The notes below the pieces were generated by a model, which saw nothing but the letters and a program-made list of their open reading frames with translations, made no database searches and was not told where the DNA came from. A DNA stretch of 64,000 bases from an uncultured Verrucomicrobiaceae bacterium (lineage in GTDB: Bacteria > Pseudomonadota > Gammaproteobacteria > Pseudomonadales > CAMLJR01). The stretch covers positions 73,612 through 137,611 of the forward strand of contig CAZCNY010000005.1 of assembly GCA_964500675.1 (NCBI GenBank), in the 5' to 3' direction. The translations under genes and the position numbers were made by a program. Each line of letters begins with the position of its first letter. The stretch's first letter is position 1. This document shows, one piece after another, positions 1,191 through 12,516 of this stretch.

Positions 1191-2486
1191 ATGAGTCTGA
1201 AGCCCATTGTCAGCAAGCCCGAAAGCGGATTCTGGCACGATGCCTATCCTGAGTTGGGCAGAGGGCCGGTTTCGTTAGAGGACAGCGTGTGCCCGCGGTT
1301 TTACGCGAAAGAAAAAGAACACATCTTCAAAAAGAATTGGCTGTATGTCGGGCGCGTCGAGCAGCTGCCCAAAAAGGGCAGCTACTTCACGCGCGAACTG
1401 CCCACGCTGGATACTTCGGTGATTTTGGTGCGCGACAAGGACGATGTTATTCGCGCGCTTCACAATATCTGTCCGCATCGCGGCAATAAACTGGTTTGGC
1501 AGGACGATCCCTTCGAGGAAACGCAGGGCACGGCGCCGTTATTTTATTGCCGCTTTCATGGTTGGCGTTACAACCTCGACGGCTCGCTGATTAAACCCTC
1601 GCGCGAAGATTTGCTGCTCGATTTCGACAAAACCAAGTGCAGCGTGCCGTCGATACAGTGCGAAATATGGAAGGGATTTATTTTCATTAATTTGAATCGC
1701 GACAACAAAGAAACGGTGCGCGATTTTCTCGGCGAGTTCGCTGAAGGGATAGAAGGTTATCCGTTCGAGCGGCCGTATCAGCTGTATAAATTCAAAGCGG
1801 AGCTGCAATGCAATTGGAAAATTTTCATGGATGGTTTTGCCGAGAGCTATCACGGGCCGTATTTGCACGCCGGTTCGTTCGGCGCGCTGACCGAAGTCGC
1901 CAAAATGGACAAAGCCAATCCTTACACCGACGCGCTGGCGTTCCAGATCAAAGGGCTGCACCGGATGTTTTCGTTTTACGGCGAGCCCTCGAAGCAGACG
2001 CCGTTTTCGCGCCCCATCGAATGTCTGACCGAATCGAGTCCGGCCGGACCGTGGCATAAAAAAGCCGACACGGGTCCGCTGCCAAAGGGGTTGAATCCAA
2101 CCCGCTCCGAGAAATACGGCTTCGATTCGTTTCAGTTTTTCCCCAATTTTGTGTTGATCTTCGGTTCTTCAGGCTTTACCACGCATACGCATTGGCCGAC
2201 CGGACCGCATTCGCACATTATCGAAGTGGAAATGTTTTACCGGCCGCCGCAAAGCCACAAAGAGCGCATCGCACAGGAGCTGACAGTATCGTTCCTCAAC
2301 GACATCGTGCTGGAGGATGCGAGCCCGCTCGAAGGCATGCAGGCGATGTTGAATAGCGGCGCGCTCAAGCAGTTTTACGTGAACGATGAGGAAATTTTGA
2401 TTCGTCATTTGCATAAAGTTGTGCAAGACGCCGTCGCCGATGGCGAGAAACAGAGCGAAGCGAAAAATAAAGGAGGCATCCAATGA
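1191..2486 (+). CDS. Rieske non-heme iron oxygenase, alpha (catalytic) subunit
   Basis: 431-aa ORF with GAGGA RBS at 1179-1183. Rieske [2Fe-2S] ligands CPHRG...CRFHGW. Mononuclear-iron motif DGFAESYHGPYLH in the C-terminal catalytic domain. No beta subunit, ferredoxin or reductase gene is adjacent. Confidence 0.9.
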   Translation: MSLKPIVSKPESGFWHDAYPELGRGPVSLEDSVCPRFYAKEKEHIFKKNWLYVGRVEQLPKKGSYFTRELPTLDTSVILVRDKDDVIRALHNICPHRGNKLVWQDDPFEETQGTAPLFYCRFHGWRYNLDGSLIKPSREDLLLDFDKTKCSVPSIQCEIWKGFIFINLNRDNKETVRDFLGEFAEGIEGYPFERPYQLYKFKAELQCNWKIFMDGFAESYHGPYLHAGSFGALTEVAKMDKANPYTDALAFQIKGLHRMFSFYGEPSKQTPFSRPIECLTESSPAGPWHKKADTGPLPKGLNPTRSEKYGFDSFQFFPNFVLIFGSSGFTTHTHWPTGPHSHIIEVEMFYRPPQSHKERIAQELTVSFLNDIVLEDASPLEGMQAMLNSGALKQFYVNDEEILIRHLHKVVQDAVADGEKQSEAKNKGGIQ

Positions 2487-2806
2487 GTTCGCTGCTGCCA
2501 AAACAATTCGCTGACCTCGAACATCTCGTTCCCGAATGGGCCATTGAAGATGGCCAGCAACGTTATTTAAAACGCGTCAATAGCACGATGGAGCAACTCA
2601 AGGCGTTTTACGACAAGATGTTTCCGCGCGGCAAAGAAGCGATCGAGTACATCGATCGGTTTGATTATCAACAGCCGCTGCCGCAGGATGCGGCGAATCT
2701 GCGCAATCTGGTTTATGCGTTGATCACCGTTGCGCTCGCGGTTGAAGTCTGGAAACAACCGCGCGTAAAACATTCGGCGCGTACGGTGCTGACACGTCTG
2801 GCTTGA
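2483..2806 (+). CDS. Hypothetical 107-aa protein, start/stop-overlapped with the Rieske oxygenase
   Basis: ATGA start/stop overlap with the upstream gene, on the same strand and inside the operon. No signal peptide and no motif I recognise. One hydrophobic stretch (LVYALITVALAVEVW). Confidence 0.55.
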   Translation: MSSLLPKQFADLEHLVPEWAIEDGQQRYLKRVNSTMEQLKAFYDKMFPRGKEAIEYIDRFDYQQPLPQDAANLRNLVYALITVALAVEVWKQPRVKHSARTVLTRLA

Positions 2807-2840
2807 TGCCGAGATAACGAATTTTTGCGAGGAACCAAAC

Positions 2841-3659
2841 ATGGCACTCGAAGTAATCGATCTGACGCCGCGTATCGGCAGCGAGATCAGAACAGATCTT
2901 GAAACCTTATTGCGCGGTTCCGAGGCGCAAAACATTCGCGGCATTTTGGAGCAGCGCGGCGTCATTTTTTTTCGCGGTCTTGATATCAGCGACCAGCAAC
3001 AGGTGACCATCGCCAAAACGCTGGGCCATCCGCTCAAGGAGGGCGGCGGCGAGGATGGCGTCTATAAAATTTCGCTGGATTCGAGCGTGAATAAAAAAGC
3101 CGATTATCTGCGAGGCTCGATGCTCTGGCACGTCGATGGCTCCACGCAGGAAAAACCGTATCTGGGTACGATGCTGCGCGCGGTCAAACTGGCAGACCAG
3201 GGCGGACAAACGGAATTCTGTAACACCTATGCCGCTTACGATGATTTGCCGGAAGCAGAAAAGTGCGCGCTCGAAAAACTTCGCGTCGTGCACAGCATGG
3301 AAAGGTCGCTGTGGTGTTTATACGCCGAGCCGAGCTATGAACAAGTGCAGGCGTGGCAGGAAATACCCGCTAAATCTTGCCCGCTGGTGTGGACGCATAA
3401 AACCGGACGCAAATCATTGCTGCTCGGCGCAACGGCCGATTACGTCGAAGGCATGTCGCCCGAAGCGAGCAGAAAACTGCTGGTGCGTCTGCGCGAGTGG
3501 GCGACCCAACCGCAATTTGTCTACCACCACGAGTGGCAAGTGAGCGATTTAATTATCTGGAGCAACACCGGCGCCATGCATCGCGCATTACCCTACGCCG
3601 CCGATAGCGGCCGCTTGATGATCCGCACCACATTGGAGGGCGAAGAACCGCTGAATTGA
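2841..3659 (+). CDS. TauD/TfdA-family Fe(II)/2-oxoglutarate-dependent dioxygenase
   Basis: 272-aa ORF. HxD of the facial triad in LWHVDGS and the distal His in GAMHRALPY. Length and layout are typical of taurine/sulfonate/phenoxyalkanoate dioxygenases. The substrate cannot be called. Confidence 0.87.
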   Translation: MALEVIDLTPRIGSEIRTDLETLLRGSEAQNIRGILEQRGVIFFRGLDISDQQQVTIAKTLGHPLKEGGGEDGVYKISLDSSVNKKADYLRGSMLWHVDGSTQEKPYLGTMLRAVKLADQGGQTEFCNTYAAYDDLPEAEKCALEKLRVVHSMERSLWCLYAEPSYEQVQAWQEIPAKSCPLVWTHKTGRKSLLLGATADYVEGMSPEASRKLLVRLREWATQPQFVYHHEWQVSDLIIWSNTGAMHRALPYAADSGRLMIRTTLEGEEPLN

Positions 3660-3748: not shown

Positions 3749-5059
3749 CTAAGCAGGGTTTTGAAATCTTACGATGACATCTAAACCGCCAAGCGAACCC
3801 GGGCTTTTGAGCTCGATATTGGCGTGATGGCGATCGGCGATTTCTTTGACGATCGCCAGCCCCAATCCATTGCCTTCAGTATCAGAATTTCTGCCTCGAT
3901 AGAATCGATCGAAAATCCGGGGCTGGTCTTCCGCAGCGACACCCGGACCTGCATCGCTTACGATTAGATGCGGTTCTGGAATCGAATTGATCAATACATC
4001 AACGCGACCGCCGCTGCTTGAATATTTAATGGCATTATCGATGAGATTGCGCAGTAATACTTTCAATGAAAAAGGATCGCCCAACACCAAAGCGGGCGCC
4101 GATGCCAATACGCCAAGGTCCATGTTTTTTTCGTGTGCATTGGGAAGCGCCTCCTCTACCGCAGCGCGAGCTGCAGCAACGAGATTGACGGTGCTAAATG
4201 CCGTGTGCGACACATCGGATGAACTGCGTGCCAACGCTAATAGCTGACGCGCAAGATTGACGCAGCGCTCCAGACTCGCCTTAACATCGTGCACGGCCTG
4301 TAATCGTCGCTCTTCAGTTTTCGCTCGCTCCAAAACTTGGAATTGCACTTGTAATGCCGTCAGGGGTGTGAGTATTTCGTGCGCAGCATCCGTAATAAAA
4401 TTCTTTTGTGAAGCAATAACTTGTTTCAGGCGCCCCAATAAATCATTCAGTGCATTGGCGACCGGCAATAACTCATTCGGCAAATTTTTCGCTGACACCT
4501 CGTGCAAAGCCGTGGGGGATCGCGCGCGAAGCTCATTTGTAAATTGTTTAAATGGCTTAAGGCTACGATCGACGACGAACCAGAGCACTAATAAAAAAAA
4601 TGGAATCAATAGCGTAATTTGCGTGGCTATACCCGATGTAAGCAGGGTTAATACTTTAGATTGAACTCGAAGCGGCTGAGCAACGGCGATGACACTGTCG
4701 GGTTCTATGCGGGTATAAACCCGCCAGTCTTCACCTGAAATCGCTTCGGTTCTAAAGCCGCTCGCAACCGGACGCTCGATATCAAGATGCCGGCACGAAA
4801 GATATGCCGGATTTTTAGCGTCGCCCTTCCATATCGCTAGCGCGAGGTTTACACGAGTGGTGTCTTCGCATGGATTGTCATCGATTTTCTTTTCGAGAAC
4901 GTCCTTGGGAACCACGCGAGAAAATTCCATGAGTTGAACATCGTAAAATTGAACAAGCCCACGCCGAGAATCCACGAGAAATTTACAAATAATGATGACG
5001 GTCAGTAGCACAATGGAAAGCAGTAGCGAAATCAGCAGAAAATGACGAATCGATTTCAT
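3749..5059 (-). CDS. Two-component sensor histidine kinase (periplasmic sensing, HAMP-DHp-CA)
   Basis: 436 aa. Two TM segments flank a ~120-aa periplasmic domain. H-box AAHEILTPLTAL, N-box LIDNAIKYS, G-boxes DAGPGV and GNGLGLAIV. 4-nt overlap with the response-regulator gene. Confidence 0.92.
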   Translation of the reverse strand: MKSIRHFLLISLLLSIVLLTVIIICKFLVDSRRGLVQFYDVQLMEFSRVVPKDVLEKKIDDNPCEDTTRVNLALAIWKGDAKNPAYLSCRHLDIERPVASGFRTEAISGEDWRVYTRIEPDSVIAVAQPLRVQSKVLTLLTSGIATQITLLIPFFLLVLWFVVDRSLKPFKQFTNELRARSPTALHEVSAKNLPNELLPVANALNDLLGRLKQVIASQKNFITDAAHEILTPLTALQVQFQVLERAKTEERRLQAVHDVKASLERCVNLARQLLALARSSSDVSHTAFSTVNLVAAARAAVEEALPNAHEKNMDLGVLASAPALVLGDPFSLKVLLRNLIDNAIKYSSSGGRVDVLINSIPEPHLIVSDAGPGVAAEDQPRIFDRFYRGRNSDTEGNGLGLAIVKEIADRHHANIELKSPGSLGGLDVIVRFQNPA

Positions 5060-5718
5060 GAAGCGGAGATAACCGTGTAACCAACGCCGCGAACCGTGAC
5101 GATAAAGTCTGCACCCAAGCGTTTGCGCAATGCGTGCACATAAACTTCGATGGTATTGCTCTCCACCTCATGCCCCCATGCGTAGAGTTTTTCTTTCAAT
5201 TGGTCGCGCGACAGGATGGCGCCTGGACGTTCGATTAGGGCATGCAGTAAAAAGAATTCACGTGTGGTCAGCGCAACATCCTGGCCACTCACATTCACCT
5301 GATGCGTCGCTAAATTTAAACTGACACCGCGATGCGTAATGATCGGTTCGGCCCGTCCTGCGCGGCGCCGCAGCAACGCACGAATACGCGCACCCAATTC
5401 ATCGAGATCAAAAGGTTTTGTTAAATAATCATCGGCACCGCTATCGAGCCCGAGTACGCGATCAGCAGGTGCTTCTCGAGCCGTTACAATGAGAACGGCG
5501 ATGTCATTATTTTCCGTGCGCAACTTGCGCAAAATACCGAGCCCTCCCTGTCCCGGCAAGCCCAGGTCGAGGATGACCAGATCGTGCAAGCGCGTTCTGA
5601 GTTGCGCGTCTGCTTCGTCACCATCGCGCACCCAGTCCACCGCATAACCTTCTTCGCGCAAGGTTTCGTAGACGCCGCGTCCGATCAGACGATCATCTTC
5701 TACTAACAGCAATCTCAT
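5056..5718 (-). CDS. OmpR/PhoB-family DNA-binding response regulator
   Basis: 220 aa. Receiver domain (MRLLLVEDD, LVILDLGLPG, TAR, KPF) plus a C-terminal winged helix (TTREFFLLHAL...TVRGVGY). Confidence 0.94.
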   Translation of the reverse strand: MRLLLVEDDRLIGRGVYETLREEGYAVDWVRDGDEADAQLRTRLHDLVILDLGLPGQGGLGILRKLRTENNDIAVLIVTAREAPADRVLGLDSGADDYLTKPFDLDELGARIRALLRRRAGRAEPIITHRGVSLNLATHQVNVSGQDVALTTREFFLLHALIERPGAILSRDQLKEKLYAWGHEVESNTIEVYVHALRKRLGADFIVTVRGVGYTVISAS

Positions 5719-5823
5719 CGTGTCGTATCCGAACTCCGCGTTGCGCGACCGCCGAGCATAAGTCTCAAGTCTTAACCCAACATTAAATTTATACGCTGAA
5801 TTGACTCGAATCCGGCCAAAAAA

Positions 5824-5859
5824 TTAAGGCCCCATTAAGCATAGCTTGGCAAAGTGCAG
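5824..5859 (+). promoter_or_regulatory. Phased motif TTAAG-N6-TTAAG-N6-TTGGCAAAGTGCAG upstream of paralog A, in the region shared with the divergent two-component operon
   Basis: TTAAG at 5824-5828 and 5835-5839 (11-bp phasing), and TTGGCAAAGTGCAG at 5846-5859. The same architecture recurs at 8009-8045, with different spacer sequences. Confidence 0.45.
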
Positions 5860-5953
5860 ATGACTGGCTGACCGATGCAGCAGTTAACCATAAGCATGTA
5901 TCCAACGGCAGATCAATAAAGCACCTAAACATAATTAAACAAGAGCTAATTTC

Positions 5954-7909
5954 ATGGACCCACTCAGTCTAACGAGCTTCAAACAACGTAAATTAAATGT
6001 GGCCCTGCTGTGTCTGCTTTCATTGTCCACTGTTGGGTTAATTGCCTGCGGTGGCGGACATTCATCATCACATGCCGCTTCATCTGCTACCGAAGATCAC
6101 CCCGCACCCGCCCCGGAGCCTGTCAGCGTCGAAGAATTACCGATGCCCCCGACAGCGCCATCGAATACGGCGGGCGCCTGCAATGCGACAATCAATTCGC
6201 ACGGAACTGGCTGCATCAGCGGCATTATACAATCGGGAAGTTTTTTACCCGACGGGCATCACGTCGTGGCTGCCGTCAATTTTGCAGGCGCACCGGCCGC
6301 CCCCGATCCGGCCAGTATTTACAGCGGCACGCAACTAATTATCGTCAAAACCGATGGCACGACATTTTCGAACGGCGATGCATGGAAATGCGTGACCTGC
6401 GGCATGCCCGATGCGAATGCGCAAGGCATTAATACAACCCGTGATTATCCGCAGACATTTCACGACGGCAAACGCTTAATGGCCGGAACGAATATTTTCG
6501 ATTGCTCGCCACATCTGTTGACCGATGACGATTGCACACCCGATCAAATGCACGCATACCCGATCCGCTGGAACGTAACGGCTGACGGCTCCGGCAATGG
6601 CGGCTCTATTCGCGAATTGCGTTTGCATCCCGACGACGCGCATCTGGGGTTTAACGCGGTATTTATTGGTGGCGGCAAATACGATGAGTACGGCTATCTG
6701 AGTCGTCTCGTATTTAATCCTTCGCCGAGCACCGGCACGCCGCTGGTACCGCGTTACGACCTCGAAAAAGTAACGCTGCTTTTTCAAGAGGGCTTGGATA
6801 AGCGGGTGCTAGCGGTGAATCCGAAAAATCCGAACGAATTAGTTATCAATCACCATGCGATTGAAGTCGGTGAATTTCGCGGCTTCACCAAAAATGGTCG
6901 CGAGGTGATGTACATCGGCTATCCATTCGAATCGAGTAACATTGATGTGTTCGCCGCCGACCTCACTACCGGCGCGGTGCGTCGATTGACAAGCAATCCT
7001 GAATATACCGATCCCGTCGATTCTTCGCCCGACGATAATTGGATTGTGGCAATGGATACACGCGGTTCCGATCGTCAAGAATTTCTCGCGGCAATGCGCT
7101 GGATTCCGCCGATTACCGACGTGGTAACCACCAGTGCGACATCCTCGACTCGCAACAACGGCAATCGCCGTTTCTTCCAACCGATTTTGATCGATCGTTA
7201 TGGCGATCGCGGTGATTATCAGGGACAGCAACTCAATGCTGGCAACGGTGCGCCCGGTAGCATTAGCGATCCGAATTGGAACGGTATGGCCGATCCGCGC
7301 TGGTCGCCCGATGGCACGAGCGTGGTGTATTGGCAAGCGATGGTGGTCAGCCCGGCATGTGGTGGCATCAATCCATTGCCTTGCCCGGTTTCGACAGAGC
7401 CTGGCGGGCGCACATCGCGCATGATGATTGCGCGCCTCACGAGTCGGCAGCCATTGTCGATCGCGCAGCCGGCGGTTATTTCCGATACGGTGCCGTGGGG
7501 CACGCCATACGTGCCAGGTAGCGCAGCTCCAGTACGTGCACATATTCCGGAAGGATCGTATGTATTAAAAGGACAAGTTTCGGGGACAGCGAATGTGCAA
7601 ATTACCGAAACCGCGGATAAAAGCGCAATTGCCACCGTGGCTGTCGATTACAAGAATTATGCGGATGTTTCTGGATACACCATCAATGGCACTGAAAGCG
7701 TAACAGGTACTCGCCCGAGTATTACGAAAATCAGCGTCGATTGGTATTCGAATTTGGATCAGCGCGGCAATGTAACTGGTTCTAAAGTAACGAGCGTGGA
7801 TGGGTTTCATCTCATCATCGATGTCTTGACGAATCTTTTCAATGCGACCGGTACGCTCACCACAACGATCGACGGCAAAGTGTATACACAGCCTGCCAAT
7901 GGTACTTAA
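5954..7909 (+). CDS. Predicted lipoprotein, Cys-rich PD40/TolB-like beta-propeller protein of unknown function (paralog A)
   Basis: 651 aa. Lipoprotein signal with lipobox LIAC followed by a low-complexity linker (GGGHSSSHAASSATEDHPAPAPEP). PD40-like blade motifs (FLPDGHHVVA, SSPDDNWIVAMDTR, DPRWSPDGTSVVYWQ). Eight Cys are conserved with paralog B. It has its own intrinsic terminator. Confidence 0.85.
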   Translation: MDPLSLTSFKQRKLNVALLCLLSLSTVGLIACGGGHSSSHAASSATEDHPAPAPEPVSVEELPMPPTAPSNTAGACNATINSHGTGCISGIIQSGSFLPDGHHVVAAVNFAGAPAAPDPASIYSGTQLIIVKTDGTTFSNGDAWKCVTCGMPDANAQGINTTRDYPQTFHDGKRLMAGTNIFDCSPHLLTDDDCTPDQMHAYPIRWNVTADGSGNGGSIRELRLHPDDAHLGFNAVFIGGGKYDEYGYLSRLVFNPSPSTGTPLVPRYDLEKVTLLFQEGLDKRVLAVNPKNPNELVINHHAIEVGEFRGFTKNGREVMYIGYPFESSNIDVFAADLTTGAVRRLTSNPEYTDPVDSSPDDNWIVAMDTRGSDRQEFLAAMRWIPPITDVVTTSATSSTRNNGNRRFFQPILIDRYGDRGDYQGQQLNAGNGAPGSISDPNWNGMADPRWSPDGTSVVYWQAMVVSPACGGINPLPCPVSTEPGGRTSRMMIARLTSRQPLSIAQPAVISDTVPWGTPYVPGSAAPVRAHIPEGSYVLKGQVSGTANVQITETADKSAIATVAVDYKNYADVSGYTINGTESVTGTRPSITKISVDWYSNLDQRGNVTGSKVTSVDGFHLIIDVLTNLFNATGTLTTTIDGKVYTQPANGT

Positions 7910-7930
7910 CGATTAACCGGGTTATTTTTT

Positions 7931-7957
7931 ACCCCTCGTACGAGGGGTCTTTTTTCT
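7931..7957 (+). terminator. Rho-independent terminator after paralog A
   Basis: ACCCCTCG-ta-CGAGGGGT perfect 8-bp GC-rich stem followed by CTTTTTTCTT, about 20 nt after the stop codon. Confidence 0.85.
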
Positions 7958-8008
7958 TAAGTCAATATTAAATTGAATGGCATTTGCTCCTTATATTGAA
8001 AAGCAAAC

Positions 8009-8045
8009 TTAAGACGTATTTAAGAAAAACCTGGCAAAGTGCCAG
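8009..8045 (+). promoter_or_regulatory. Phased motif TTAAG-N6-TTAAG-N6-CTGGCAAAGTGCCAG upstream of paralog B
   Basis: TTAAG at 8009-8013 and 8020-8024. CTGGCA-AAG-TGCCAG at 8031-8045 is a perfect palindrome. It lies 116 nt upstream of the ATG at 8161. Confidence 0.45.
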
Positions 8046-8160
8046 TGGGTAAAACGGTGAGGTATTTTTTATGCAGATCGATTGAGCGTGGTTTTTTGCT
8101 GCTCTTTCACTGGTTCCGTGACATCCAATAACGTCCATAAATCGCAACGGAGCGAGTATC

Positions 8161-10110
8161 ATGATTAAATCTAATCGAATATCGATTCGCGCGCGGCGCA
8201 CGCTGCTCGCAACATCGCTAAGTATTTTTTCTTGTTTTGGTGTCGCGATATCTGCCGCGGCAGACGAACCGTCGCTACATGATTTACTGAAATTGCTGCC
8301 ACCGAAACCCGAGCCGGTCAAGGTCGAGGAGTTGCCGGTTCCGCCGACATCTCCTTCGACTGCGATTGGCGCATGCACCACGGTTGTGAATCCTCATGGC
8401 ACCGGTTGCATCACCAATATTCAGCAATCGGGTAGCTTCTTACCGGACGGTCATCACGTTGTGGCGCTAGTGAATTATGCCGGCGCACCTGCCGCACCCG
8501 ATCCCACAAGTATTTATAGCGGCGTCCAGCTCATCATCGTCAAAACCGACGGCACCACCTTCGCGAACGGCGACGCATGGAAATGCGTGACCTGCGGTAT
8601 GCCAGCAGAAAATGCACAAGGCATCAGCACGGCACGTGATTATCCGCAGACATTTTTTGACGGCAAGCGTTTAATGGCGGGTACTAACATTTTCGATTGT
8701 TCGCCGTATAAATTGACGGACGATAATTGCACAGGGTCGCAAATGCACGCCTATCCCATTCGCTGGAACGTCACCGCCGATGGCTCGGGCGCTGGTGGAA
8801 GCATTCGCGAATTACGTATCCACCCCGACAATGTGCATCTCGGCTTTAATAGCACCGTCGTTAACAACGGTAAATTCGATCAGTTCGCTTATCTCGGCCG
8901 CTTGGTTTTTAATCCTGCTCCGGCGACCGGAACTCCGTCGGTTCCTCGTTATGATTTAACCAACGTAACGCGCATGTTCCAGGAGGGGCTGGATAAACGC
9001 GTGGTCACTGTGAATCCTTCAAAACCCAATGAATTGCTCATTAATAAGCAGGCGATCGAAGTTGGCGAATTTCGCGGTTGGACCAAAAACGGTCGCGAAG
9101 CAATGTACGTCGGCTATCCGTTTGAATCATCCAATATCGATGTATTCGCCGCCGATTTGCAAACCGGTAAAGTTCGGCGGCTAACACGCAACCCAGGTTA
9201 TGTCGATCCGGTGGACTCTTCACCCGACGACAATTGGATTGTCGCCATGGATACGCGCGCCACCGATCGCCAAAGTTTCGTGGCGGCGATGCGCGCGATT
9301 CCACCGATCACCGATGTGATTACGACGAGCGCGGTTTCTTCGGTACGCAACAACGGTCAACGTCGATTCTTCCAACCCTATTTAATCGATCGCTACGGCG
9401 ATCGCGGCAATTACAACGGCCAGCAATTAAATGCGGGCGATGGCGCGCCGGGCAGTATCAGCGATCCGAACTGGAATGGCATGGCCGATCCGCGCTGGTC
9501 GCCGGACGGTACCGCAGTGGTGTATTGGCAAGCGCTGGTGACGAGTCCCGCATGCGGTGGTATCAATCCATTGCCGTGTCCGGTTTCCACGGAACCTGGC
9601 GGCAGAACATCACGCATGATGATTGCGCGTTTGACGAACCGGAAACCGCTGCCGATTCCCACGCAACCGATAGCGCCGATTTCGGACACAATTGCTTGGG
9701 GCACTCCGTACGTACCTGGCAGCGCCGCGCCAGTACGCGCATTAATTCCGGCAGGCGCCTACACACTGCGCGGATTAATCTGGGGAACAGCGCAAGTTGT
9801 GGTAACGCACACGGCGGATGATCTCAATATCGATACCATTTCCGTGACGTATAACAATTATTCGGATGATCTTGTGCATTTTCTTAATGGTACTGAAAGT
9901 GTGCATGGCTCGCGTCCGAACCCGCTGACCACCGTGGTTGATTGGTATTCGAATCTTTTCCAAAACGGCATAGATACAGGCACCAAACTGACGAGTCAGG
10001 ATGGGTTTCATCTCAGCATCAATATCCTGACCAATCTGTTCAATGCAACCGGCACGTTGACGACAACAATAAATGGACACGCGTACATACAACCCGCCAA
10101 TGGGACTTAA
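8161..10110 (+). CDS. Secreted Cys-rich PD40/TolB-like beta-propeller protein of unknown function (paralog B)
   Basis: 649 aa with a GGAG RBS. Sec-type signal (..FGVAISAAA|DEP). Collinear with paralog A over ~590 aa, with most positions identical by eye. It has its own terminator. Confidence 0.85.
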   Translation: MIKSNRISIRARRTLLATSLSIFSCFGVAISAAADEPSLHDLLKLLPPKPEPVKVEELPVPPTSPSTAIGACTTVVNPHGTGCITNIQQSGSFLPDGHHVVALVNYAGAPAAPDPTSIYSGVQLIIVKTDGTTFANGDAWKCVTCGMPAENAQGISTARDYPQTFFDGKRLMAGTNIFDCSPYKLTDDNCTGSQMHAYPIRWNVTADGSGAGGSIRELRIHPDNVHLGFNSTVVNNGKFDQFAYLGRLVFNPAPATGTPSVPRYDLTNVTRMFQEGLDKRVVTVNPSKPNELLINKQAIEVGEFRGWTKNGREAMYVGYPFESSNIDVFAADLQTGKVRRLTRNPGYVDPVDSSPDDNWIVAMDTRATDRQSFVAAMRAIPPITDVITTSAVSSVRNNGQRRFFQPYLIDRYGDRGNYNGQQLNAGDGAPGSISDPNWNGMADPRWSPDGTAVVYWQALVTSPACGGINPLPCPVSTEPGGRTSRMMIARLTNRKPLPIPTQPIAPISDTIAWGTPYVPGSAAPVRALIPAGAYTLRGLIWGTAQVVVTHTADDLNIDTISVTYNNYSDDLVHFLNGTESVHGSRPNPLTTVVDWYSNLFQNGIDTGTKLTSQDGFHLSINILTNLFNATGTLTTTINGHAYIQPANGT

Positions 10111-10131
10111 TGATTAGAAAACTTCTGCTGA

Positions 10132-10158
10132 GCCCCTTTTCTAAAGGGGCTTTTTTTT
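10132..10158 (+). terminator. Rho-independent terminator after paralog B
   Basis: GCCCCTTT-tcta-AAGGGGC stem-loop followed by TTTTTTTT. Confidence 0.85.
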
Positions 10159-10251
10159 AGGTAGCATTAATTTTCCGACTGGCAGCAAAGATATTTACTA
10201 GAAATAGCGCCCGATTAATTAAGATAATCACAATAATAGGGAAGGCCGTGA

Positions 10252-12516
10252 ATGCAAAAGATTAAAATTTCCCGAGCATCGCTTGCGTCCATCTCACTGT
10301 TAACGATCGCCGCCACTCTCGGCAAAAATGCGGATGCTGCGGATAAATTGGACACTGTCATTGTCACCGCAAATAAAATCGAACAAGACGCGCAACAGAC
10401 CGCCATTTCAATGCAGTCGCTTTCGGGTGAAAAATTATCGAATATGGGTATCGGCAATGTTGCGGAGATCGCTCAATTTATTCCCGGATTGCAAATGGAC
10501 CAAGCGGGCGGCGGCTTGACCGCGACAGTTCGCATTCGCGGCATTGGCGCACCCGGTTATTCAGCGCTCGATCCTTCGGTGCCGATATTTATCGATGGTG
10601 TCGCGCAAGCACGCACAGGCGCTGGCTTTCGCGACCTTTTCGATATTGCGCATATCGAAGTGTTACGCGGACCGCAGAGCATACTCTATGGTCGCAACTC
10701 GACGGCAGGGGCAATTAATATTTGGACGAAGGATGCCAACGCCTATCGATGGAGTGGTTATTTACAGGCCCAAGCAGGCAATTACAATGACAGGGAGCTG
10801 AAAAGCACGGTTAATATTCCGCTGGTTGAAAGTTTGTTGGCAGCACGGCTCAGTTTTTTTTCGGTTTACCAGGATGGTTACATGAAAAATGTTTTACACG
10901 GCGATAATACAGAAAATGGTCATACCAGCCGCTTTGGAGGTCGCGCCAAAATCGCGTTAATCCCTGCAGAAAATCTGTCTATGCAATGGACGACAAGCTA
11001 TTCAAAAAACACCGAACATCCGGGGCATGCATGGGCCGTTGTACCTGCATTCTATTCCGATTACGCAAATAGTGCGGGCGGCATCGTTTCGCAACAAGGA
11101 AGCCATCAACTTCCTCACGACGATCGTTACAATGGCGATGTTTATCACAATGTATATCAGTCGGCTTACGATACTAATTTTTCCACGTCGATAACAGCGA
11201 ACTGGGATATCGACGGCGGTGTATTTTCCAAAAAAACACTGACGTCGATTACCGCCTACAACATTAATAAGTCCGATCAGTTGCTCGATCAGGATGCAAG
11301 CATTCTTGATTACGGTACATCGGCTGGTAAAGCCGACACCGATTCATGGTCGCAGGAGTTTCGCATAGCAAACAGCGATAGCGACGATCTCGAATACATG
11401 ATCGGGTTTTACTACTACGCAGAACGCGTAACCAGCACGCAAAATACCAATTCATTGCACAGTGACGCGATCGCTGCTTTTGACGCTTTGGGATTTAACG
11501 CCATCGGAAGCTACCCAACATCGGCTGATACAAAAAATGAATTCGGTGCCAATGACGAAGCCATTTTTAGCCACGTGACATATTCATTTTCGCCACAATT
11601 CAGTTTGACCGCAGGCCTGCGCGAATCTTGGGCGCAAAAGCGAGGCAACTCTACTCTTAACTCCGATATCTACGTCGGAAATTTGAATTTTTTACATATC
11701 GATAAAAACATTGTCGACCATGAGAATATTACCGATTCCGACACGTCGGGAACACTGCAAGCCCGTTATTTTTTGAACCCTGACGACATGATTTACATCG
11801 CTTACGATCGCGGCTTTAAGCCGGGAGGATTCAATCGCCTCATCACCAGCGCAAGCTTACCGACCACCTACAATAAAGAAATTTCGAATAATTATGAGAC
11901 CGGCGCAAAAACACAGTGGTTAAAAAATCGCTTACAAGCCGATATTGCTTTTTTCCATATGGATTTTAGAGATTTTCATCATCAGACGCTGACATCAAAC
12001 GGTGATGTCATTGTCGAGAATATTGGCAAAGCCACCTCTGATGGCGTCGAATTGGAGCTGCAAGCGCTTCCCGCATCCAACTTGAATTTGGCAACGAGTG
12101 TGGCGTACGTAAATCCGAGGGTACGCAGCGATACATCCGCTAGCTCTAATTTGCACAAAGGTGAGCTCATCCCGGATAGCAGCCAATACAGCGCCAACGT
12201 CAGCGCGGAATATAATCGCGCAATACCCACCGGGCATTCAAATGGCTTTCTGCGAATCGATTGGCTCTATCGAAGCCGATATGTTTTGGGCGACCCCCGC
12301 GACGGTTATTATCAGAACGGATATTCACTGATGGATATCCGCTGCGGCTTGCGTGATATGGGTGAGCACTGGGAGATAACAAGCTGGATTAAAAATGTTT
12401 TCGACAAGGAATATGCGGTTACCGGCAACTCCACCTCAGGGGCGCAAGGGACTGCCTTGTCGATTTATCCTGGGTCACCGCGCACCTTCGGCATTACAGC
12501 ACAATATAATTTCTGA
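10252..12516 (+). CDS. TonB-dependent outer-membrane receptor
   Basis: 754 aa. Signal peptide ending ..GKNADA. Plug-domain start DKLDTVIVTANK and IEVLRGPQSILYGRNSTAGAINI. The long beta-barrel ends in the aromatic terminal motif TAQYNF. Confidence 0.93.
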   Translation: MQKIKISRASLASISLLTIAATLGKNADAADKLDTVIVTANKIEQDAQQTAISMQSLSGEKLSNMGIGNVAEIAQFIPGLQMDQAGGGLTATVRIRGIGAPGYSALDPSVPIFIDGVAQARTGAGFRDLFDIAHIEVLRGPQSILYGRNSTAGAINIWTKDANAYRWSGYLQAQAGNYNDRELKSTVNIPLVESLLAARLSFFSVYQDGYMKNVLHGDNTENGHTSRFGGRAKIALIPAENLSMQWTTSYSKNTEHPGHAWAVVPAFYSDYANSAGGIVSQQGSHQLPHDDRYNGDVYHNVYQSAYDTNFSTSITANWDIDGGVFSKKTLTSITAYNINKSDQLLDQDASILDYGTSAGKADTDSWSQEFRIANSDSDDLEYMIGFYYYAERVTSTQNTNSLHSDAIAAFDALGFNAIGSYPTSADTKNEFGANDEAIFSHVTYSFSPQFSLTAGLRESWAQKRGNSTLNSDIYVGNLNFLHIDKNIVDHENITDSDTSGTLQARYFLNPDDMIYIAYDRGFKPGGFNRLITSASLPTTYNKEISNNYETGAKTQWLKNRLQADIAFFHMDFRDFHHQTLTSNGDVIVENIGKATSDGVELELQALPASNLNLATSVAYVNPRVRSDTSASSNLHKGELIPDSSQYSANVSAEYNRAIPTGHSNGFLRIDWLYRSRYVLGDPRDGYYQNGYSLMDIRCGLRDMGEHWEITSWIKNVFDKEYAVTGNSTSGAQGTALSIYPGSPRTFGITAQYNF

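Follow-up and report, generated by a model that had tools for sequence, protein, structure and literature searches.

Putative PmrA-box-type operators upstream of two saponin-hydrolase-like genes and the adjacent two-component system in a Spongiibacteraceae-like gammaproteobacterium

Results

We analyzed a 64-kb stretch of DNA from an uncultured gammaproteobacterium (contig CAZCNY010000005.1, positions 73,612 to 137,611; hereafter, the window), in which two tandem genes for saponin-hydrolase-like proteins (paralogs A and B) lie beside a divergently transcribed two-component system and are followed by a gene for a TonB-dependent receptor (Table 1). Upstream of each paralog stands the element TTAAG-N6-TTAAG-N6-YTGGCAAAGTGC. 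It had been reported in an earlier note on this DNA, and its positions proved to be right: TTAAG at 5824-5828 and 5835-5839 with TTGGCAAAGTGCAG at 5846-5859 upstream of paralog A, and TTAAG at 8009-8013 and 8020-8024 with CTGGCAAAGTGCCAG at 8031-8045 upstream of paralog B. The 34-nt pattern matched these two places only in the window, even when up to three mismatches were allowed, against an expectation of 0.00 from 100 shuffles. The shorter pattern TTAA-N7-TTAA occurred four times (0.48 expected), and all four copies lay in the two hydrolase intergenic regions. A window scan for TGGCAAAGTGC alone with two mismatches revealed no enrichment (20 matches, 23.7 expected), and no part of the window matched an Rfam RNA family.

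Two of the four TTAA pairs had been overlooked. An additional pair phased by 11 bp lies exactly 52 bp 5' of each proximal TTAAG pair, with the cores TTAAC at 5772 and TTAAA at 5783 upstream of paralog A, and TTAAG at 7957 and TTAAA at 7968 upstream of paralog B; we refer to these pairs as distal boxes and to those first described as proximal boxes. The upstream DNA of the two paralogs had been regarded as not obviously alignable, which is correct for the spacer between the boxes, where identity is at the random level, but not for the second box pair, which aligns 52 bp upstream. An intrinsic-terminator-like hairpin with a T-run lies 3' of paralog A, and paralog B would therefore need its own promoter.

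We then compared the hydrolase promoters across genomes. The closest hydrolase homologues (83% and 80% identical) were adjacent to each other on a contig of a Spongiibacteraceae metagenome-assembled genome (MAG; L001), with a divergent regulator gene arranged as in the window. Another contig (L102, 66% G+C) encodes a regulator 80% identical to that of the window, divergent from an A-type hydrolase that is 77% identical. The resulting set of five promoters from three genomes (A and B of the window, A and B of L001, and A of L102; 54-66% G+C) could be aligned with zero gaps, with boxes at 0, 11, 52, and 63 and, spanning +78 to +83, a conserved hexamer of the form CA..GT. Mean pairwise identity was 0.84 in the distal box, 0.26 in the 35-nt spacer, 0.66 in the proximal box, 0.28 in the gap after the proximal box, 0.72 in the -10-like element, and 0.27 further downstream. 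The earlier proposal that the motif reflects selection rather than carry-over from the duplication was thus upheld, as the boxes are 66-84% identical against 26% in the spacer, indicating that the discrete elements and their spacing are under selection. By the terms of the same note, absence of the motif upstream of orthologous paralogs would have counted against the finding; the motif was found there in both L001 and L102.

A scan of the genome collection with paralog A returned only loci of Actinomadura, Frankia, and similar organisms, all without two-component genes, and the more distant hydrolase homologues P0005 and P0012 stood in different contexts with neither the regulator nor the motif. 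The distal box of paralog B has no divergent gene opposite, yet it is conserved in L001. On the minus strand after this box of the window, no -10-like hexamer was present; the sequence there is CCTCGT, inside the terminator.

The response regulator encoded next to paralog A was most similar among PDB entries to PmrA/BasR of Klebsiella and E. coli (8jo2 and 4s04, E ~2e-46). Among NCBIfam models, PmrA ranked first (233.5 bits; cut-off, 330) and QseB second (210.6 bits; cut-off, 345). In an ungapped alignment with 4s04, the regulator carries S187, N188, V192, and H195, and R171, R198, and R210 are retained. In PmrA, T187, N188, V192, and H195 are reported to contact the TAA bases (PMC10570014), so three of the four base-contacting residues are identical and the fourth replacement (T187 to S187) is conservative. 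The PmrA box is composed of the hexamers CTTAAG and XTTAAT with 5 bp between them, is bound head to tail, and overlaps or replaces the -35 element at pbgP, ugd, and pmrCAB (PMC3973317, PMC10570014). The window boxes fit this form, the proximal ones as xTTAAG-N5-xTTAAG and the distal ones, on the minus strand, as TTTAAT-N5-sTTAAG. The 5-bp spacer between hexamers, corresponding to the 11-bp period, was found in four of four window boxes and in all boxes of L001, L102, and three further loci with regulator orthologues (L097, L103, and L105). The earlier note had recognized direct repeats phased by one helical turn as the site architecture of OmpR/PhoB-family regulators; these repeats do adjoin a gene for a receiver and winged-helix protein, and the assignment can now be sharpened to a PmrA box. 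We consider it well founded to expect that the adjacent PmrA/QseB-like regulator binds these boxes.

Judged as a PmrA/PmrB (BasRS) orthologue, the regulator-kinase pair did not qualify: the PmrA cut-off was missed, the kinase is QseC-like, and the targets are not the lipopolysaccharide (LPS)-modification genes arn, eptA, or ugd. The kinase has two transmembrane segments around a periplasmic domain of ~120 aa, and NCBIfam ranked it best with QseC (195 bits, under the cut-off) and third with PmrB (143 bits). Its periplasmic domain (protein residues ~26-145) contains the cysteines C64 and C89, and the ExxE iron-binding motif of the PmrB type is not evident; the signal is therefore probably other than the Fe3+/Al3+ sensed by PmrB.

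The YTGGCAAAGTGC element is best read as the extended -10 of the promoter rather than as part of the regulator site. In the hydrolase promoters its hexamer begins exactly 10 nt after the second TTAAG, and at this fixed gap from the box, G-14, C-12, A-11, G-8, and T-7 are invariant in seven of seven target promoters. TGG+CA..GT is present in four of the five hydrolase promoters, which carry TTGGCAAAGTGCAG (window A), CTGGCAAAGTGCCAG (window B), TTGGCAATGTATTT, TTGGCAGAGTGCAG, and GCGACATAGTGCGA (the other three); T-15 is present in 4/7 target promoters, and the hexamer agrees with TATAAT at three to four of six positions. This reading would put the proximal box at ~-39 to -23, a position intermediate between that of the PmrA box at pbgP, inferred from PMC10570014 as ~-37 to -21, and that of the Pho box bound by PhoB at pstS (-41 to -25; PMC10570014). 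Neither hydrolase intergenic region contained a promoter-like site in a standard sigma-70 scan, which is consistent with activator-dependent promoters. The palindrome CTGGCA-AAG-TGCCAG at 8031-8045, which had been described as perfect, is real in copy B, but the four remaining hydrolase promoters do not conserve it. A palindromic operator or bidirectional terminator was rejected because the 6+6 palindrome exists only in window B; 8045-8031 scored as a minus-strand terminator-like hairpin in this copy only.

Upstream of paralog A, the distal box in its minus-strand orientation faces the regulator gene, and it probably drives the regulator-kinase operon and thereby autoregulation. Autoregulation had been proposed before on the grounds that the proximal copy lies in the shared promoter region; it is plausible, but it is better explained by the distal box (5771-5787) followed by TATGCT at 5760-5755. 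Regulator orthologues with 74-86% identity were also preceded by a box, 10 nt, and an nAnnnT hexamer in L001 (CATGCT), L097 (CATGCT), L103 (GATGGT), and L105 (CACCCT), and L102 showed an 11-nt gap (TATCCT). Overall, 14 of 16 promoter-facing boxes had nAnnnT at a 10-nt gap, the others being those of the L102 regulator (11 nt) and L022 (9 nt); transcription positions are predicted throughout. When metagenomes were scanned with the regulator, the matches listed were mostly 37-60% identical paralogues found via the universal peptide DDYLTKPF, and among those listed two loci were informative. A regulator homologue of 57% identity (L016, ~1800-1835) has GCTAAG-N5-GTTAAG-N10-TAGAAT upstream of its own gene, and one of 48% identity (L022, 1411-1427) has the form xTTAAG/xCTAAG-N5-sTTAAG with GATAAT at the 9-nt gap. 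Autoregulatory boxes of such form appear to be widespread in this regulator clade.

The same layout was found before genes other than hydrolases. TTTCAG-N5-GTTAAG-N10-CAAAGT precedes an outer-membrane efflux (OEP) gene in L103 (1600-1812), and a degenerate GGTCAG, N5, CTTAAG-N10-CATCGT precedes an OEP-RND operon in L105 (5802-5977), L106, and L107. In L096 (12732-12748) and L098 (7244-7260), TTTCAT-GTTGG-CTTAAG-N10-TATTTT precedes the gene of a TonB receptor with 48% identity to the one of the window. The boxes of divergent arrangements were always 52 or 53 bp apart regardless of the cargo gene, and 741 kb of unrelated loci contained four bare boxes and no full architecture. One regulatory cassette seems to have been put to use with several kinds of cargo. 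As to gene order, the regulator orthologues of L103 and L105-L107 (74-82% identical) are divergent to efflux/RND genes, not hydrolases, with the two boxes 53 bp apart, and the regulator-kinase pair of L096 and L098 comes after genes for cytochrome b561 and cytochrome c', all in one orientation.

A weaker variant of the motif at 10167-10190 had been noted before the TonB-dependent receptor gene of the window. It exists but is unremarkable, as pairs with one mismatch number 18 in the window against 13.3 expected, and it does not fit the promoter model, with TGGCA 1 nt out of register and a hexamer without T-7. Since related contigs end before this receptor gene, this look-alike was judged from the window alone. 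A sigma-70-like site, TAGAAA-N18-GATAAT at 10199-10228, is a better candidate for the receptor promoter; the region 10199-10239 holds this site and the AT-rich sequence GATTAATTAAGATAATCACAATAATAG. A Fur-box reading upstream of the receptor gene was rejected (13/19, equalled at 16 other places in the window and not significant). The look-alike is similar to the distal box of paralog B, located after the terminator, and may therefore be a decayed copy of it. Since boxes do stand before TonB receptor genes in L096 and L098, regulation of the window TonB receptor is possible.

Regarding the hydrolases themselves, a Pfam search gave no match to paralogs A and B in the library copy used, and some sources name their homologues 'Saponin hydrolase' or 'TolB family protein'. 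Members of the family are 55-70% identical between gammaproteobacteria and Actinomadura, Frankia, and Streptomyces, and this extends even to the fungi Neofusicoccum, Lasiodiplodia, and Macrophomina; such unusually high conservation across distant taxa suggests horizontal spread. Just past the kinase gene, the window encodes the alpha subunit of a Rieske/ring-hydroxylating oxygenase at 1191-2486 and a dioxygenase of the TauD/TfdA family at 2841-3659; their genes possibly share a catabolic neighbourhood with the hydrolases and the TonB receptor. The box was not present upstream of these two genes (window 1191-3659).

Table 1. Genes, boxes, and predicted promoter elements around the motif (window positions)
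Feature	Position	Strand	Description
Sensor histidine kinase gene	3749..5059	-	Pfam HisKA + HATPase_c
Response regulator gene	5056..5718	-	OmpR/PhoB family, PmrA/QseB subgroup; Pfam Response_reg + Trans_reg_C
Predicted -10, regulator-kinase operon	5755..5760	-	TATGCT; 10 nt after distal box; ~37 nt upstream of regulator ATG; predicted start ~5748
Distal box, regulator/paralog A region	5771..5787	-	TTTAAT-GTTGG-GTTAAG; plus strand, CTTAAC-CCAAC-ATTAAA
Proximal box, paralog A	5823..5839	+	ATTAAG-GCCCC-ATTAAG; direct repeat, 11-bp period; predicted position -39 to -23
Predicted extended -10, paralog A	5847..5855	+	TGG + CAAAGT; predicted start ~5861-5863
Paralog A	5954..7909	+	651-aa lipoprotein of the saponin-hydrolase-like / TolB-like beta-propeller kind
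Intrinsic-terminator-like hairpin + T-run	7931..7948	+	After paralog A
Distal box, paralog B	7956..7972	+	CTTAAG-TCAAT-ATTAAA; minus strand, TTTAAT...CTTAAG
Proximal box, paralog B	8008..8024	+	CTTAAG-ACGTA-TTTAAG
Predicted extended -10, paralog B	8032..8040	+	TGG + CAAAGT; predicted start ~8046-8048
Paralog B	8161..10110	+	649 aa; 72% identity to A
Terminator-like hairpin	10130-10152		After paralog B
Degenerate look-alike	10156..10190	+	TTTAG-N6-TTAAT (10156-10171), then CTGGCAGCAAAG; function doubtful
TonB-dependent receptor gene	10252-12516	+	Pfam

Discussion

On the sequence evidence, we consider it fairly probable that the boxes are operators of the PmrA-box type, bound by the adjacent phosphorylated regulator at class-II promoters with an extended -10, and that the system is autoregulated. 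A dimer of the phosphorylated regulator (5056-5718) would bind the proximal box, with its hexamers head to tail and one helical turn apart, and the box, at the predicted position of -39 to -23, would substitute for the missing -35. Exactly 10 nt on, TGGCAAAGT would act as the extended -10 (TGn + CAAAGT), and the regulator would activate rather than repress, bringing in sigma-70 RNA polymerase by class-II activation as demonstrated for PmrA and PhoB. From the distal box, on the opposite strand and 10 nt from TATGCT, the regulator would also stimulate its own operon, resulting in positive autoregulation. The distal box may additionally aid transcription of the hydrolases, perhaps by placing another dimer on the same face of the DNA, because it is kept upstream of paralog B in both genomes without a facing gene or -10.

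Several points weigh against this interpretation. The proposed -10, CAAAGT, is weak, with a 3/6 match to TATAAT, and the invariant C-12 and G-8, together with G or A at -13 (7/7), are unexplained by sigma-70 recognition. The regulator scores under both the PmrA and QseB equivalog cut-offs, and its specificity is read from four residues only. As TTAA is itself palindromic, the sequence does not fix how the half-sites are oriented, and their orientation was assigned only from the flanking K. Furthermore, the regulators of L096 and L098 (79-82% identical) have no box before their own genes, the one in L099 is only half-convincing, and the role given to the distal box upstream of paralog B is conjecture.

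A different promoter geometry is conceivable, in which YTGGCA is the -35 and the regulator activates from upstream, in the OmpR-like class I manner via the RNA polymerase alpha subunit's C-terminal domain (alpha-CTD), with the -10 ~17 bp further downstream. TTGGCA matches TTGACA at five of six positions in four of the five hydrolase promoters, and OmpR does bind upstream of the -35 (PMC10570014). However, none of the five promoters has a conserved or recognisable -10 16-18 bp downstream, where identity is 0.27, and TTGGCA was rejected as a -35 for this reason. The first T is C in window B, L102 has GCGACA, and the conserved G-T two positions past TGGCA has no role in a -35. In addition, the regulator-operon and TonB promoters carry a plain -10-like hexamer (TATGCT, CATGCT, TATTTT, or TAGAAT) at the same 10-nt gap without TTGGCA. 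We regard this geometry as unlikely.

To a similar degree, we doubt that the boxes repress a constitutive promoter by covering its -35 to -23 region, or that GCA-N3-TGC is the operator of a second dimeric regulator. The box does overlap the core promoter, but no -35 is available for constitutive transcription, and boxes of the PmrA and PhoB type at such a position activate (PMC10570014). As for a second regulator, GCA-N3-TGC occurs in 4/7 target promoters and is lengthened to the 6+6 palindrome in window B, whereas the palindrome is missing in L001 A (CAATGTAT) and L103 (CAAAGTAA), and the neighbourhood contains no second conserved regulator gene.

It is very improbable that the similarity of the motifs is a functionless remnant of tandem duplication. 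The paralogues share 72% amino acid identity and the box spacing is identical in both copies, as a remnant would predict, but identity between and around the boxes is 0.26-0.32 (the random level) against 0.66-0.84 within them, and the same holds between orthologues in three genomes. The architecture is also found before unrelated genes beside orthologous regulators, and the diverged spacers argue against the related contigs being recent transfers of one segment. A sigma-54 (-24/-12) promoter can practically be dismissed: TGGCA...TGC resembles the -24 element TGGCAC, but GG and GC are 12 nt apart in such promoters (TGGCAC-N5-TTGC) and 8 nt apart in TGGCAAAGTGC, a spacing on which this candidate was rejected, and the regulator next door belongs to the winged-helix OmpR family and not to the AAA+ enhancer-binding proteins.

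The favoured arrangement, a PmrA-box-type operator in place of the -35, has close parallels. It shares with the PmrA (BasR) box of Salmonella, E. coli, and Klebsiella (pbgP/arnB, ugd, and pmrCAB) the direct repeat of xTTAAK, the 5-bp spacing, and, by prediction, the replaced -35, and in both systems the regulator operon stands under a box (pmrCAB there, predicted here); the head-to-tail binding of a dimer is that of PmrA (PMC3973317, PMC10570014). The targets differ, being saponin-hydrolase-like lipoproteins here and LPS-modification genes in the PmrA system. The gap between the box and the -10 is 10 nt here and ~8 nt at pbgP (inferred from positions in PMC10570014), and an extra box lies 52 bp upstream here. 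The Pho box at pstS is also made of 11-bp-phased direct repeats; these replace the -35, and the activator PhoB contacts sigma region 4 and occupies -41 to -25 (PMC10570014), against the predicted -39 to -23 here. Its half-site is CTGTCAT instead of TTAAG, and the recognition-helix residues differ too.

A further parallel is the PmrA regulon of Legionella and Coxiella (Zusman et al. 2007, cited in PMC6989116 and PMC4117601). This non-enterobacterial homologue, sometimes annotated as QseB, reportedly controls non-LPS genes through tandem repeats of the TTAAT type that keep a fixed distance from a -10 element. That regulon is global, comprising secretion-system and effector genes, whereas the one proposed here is local, with two to three promoters beside the two-component genes. 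A copper-responsive system (PMC6989116) similarly pairs a winged-helix regulator with a divergent target gene, and the -10s of both promoters lie a fixed distance from a conserved site, but this site is an inverted repeat, ATTACAAnnTTGTAAT, whereas the boxes here are direct repeats.

A bolder view goes beyond individual operators. The unit might be a portable, bidirectional two-box cassette, [-10 <- 10 nt <- box]-35/36 bp-[box -> 10 nt -> GGCAnnGT(GC)], that moves with the two-component system before varied cargo. Both boxes would perhaps be needed jointly, as two dimers on one face or through a loop, and the constrained target-side -10 (G-14, C-12, and G-8; GCA-N3-TGC) would perhaps be read by a second factor or reflect a special geometry of regulator and polymerase. 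We consider this speculative and give it only a small chance; if true, the constraint on the target-side -10 would set the target promoters of the cassette apart from the autoregulatory one.

The proposed set of promoters is a local regulon that has not been described previously, built on a switch of a well-known type, and the general concepts of bacterial transcription control are unchanged by this result. For Spongiibacteraceae-like marine gammaproteobacteria, it provides a testable map of an uncharacterised two-component system, in which three promoters and four regulator sites are predicted together with an autoregulatory loop, and it links this system to two secreted/lipoprotein saponin-hydrolase-like enzymes. 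Cargo genes change between hydrolases, efflux pumps, and TonB receptors, but the PmrA-type box stays, as does its fixed spacing of 10 nt from the -10. Because the layout is kept across cargo, xTTAAK-N5-xTTAAG-N10-nAnnnT would be usable as a search key for the regulons of this regulator clade in metagenomes.

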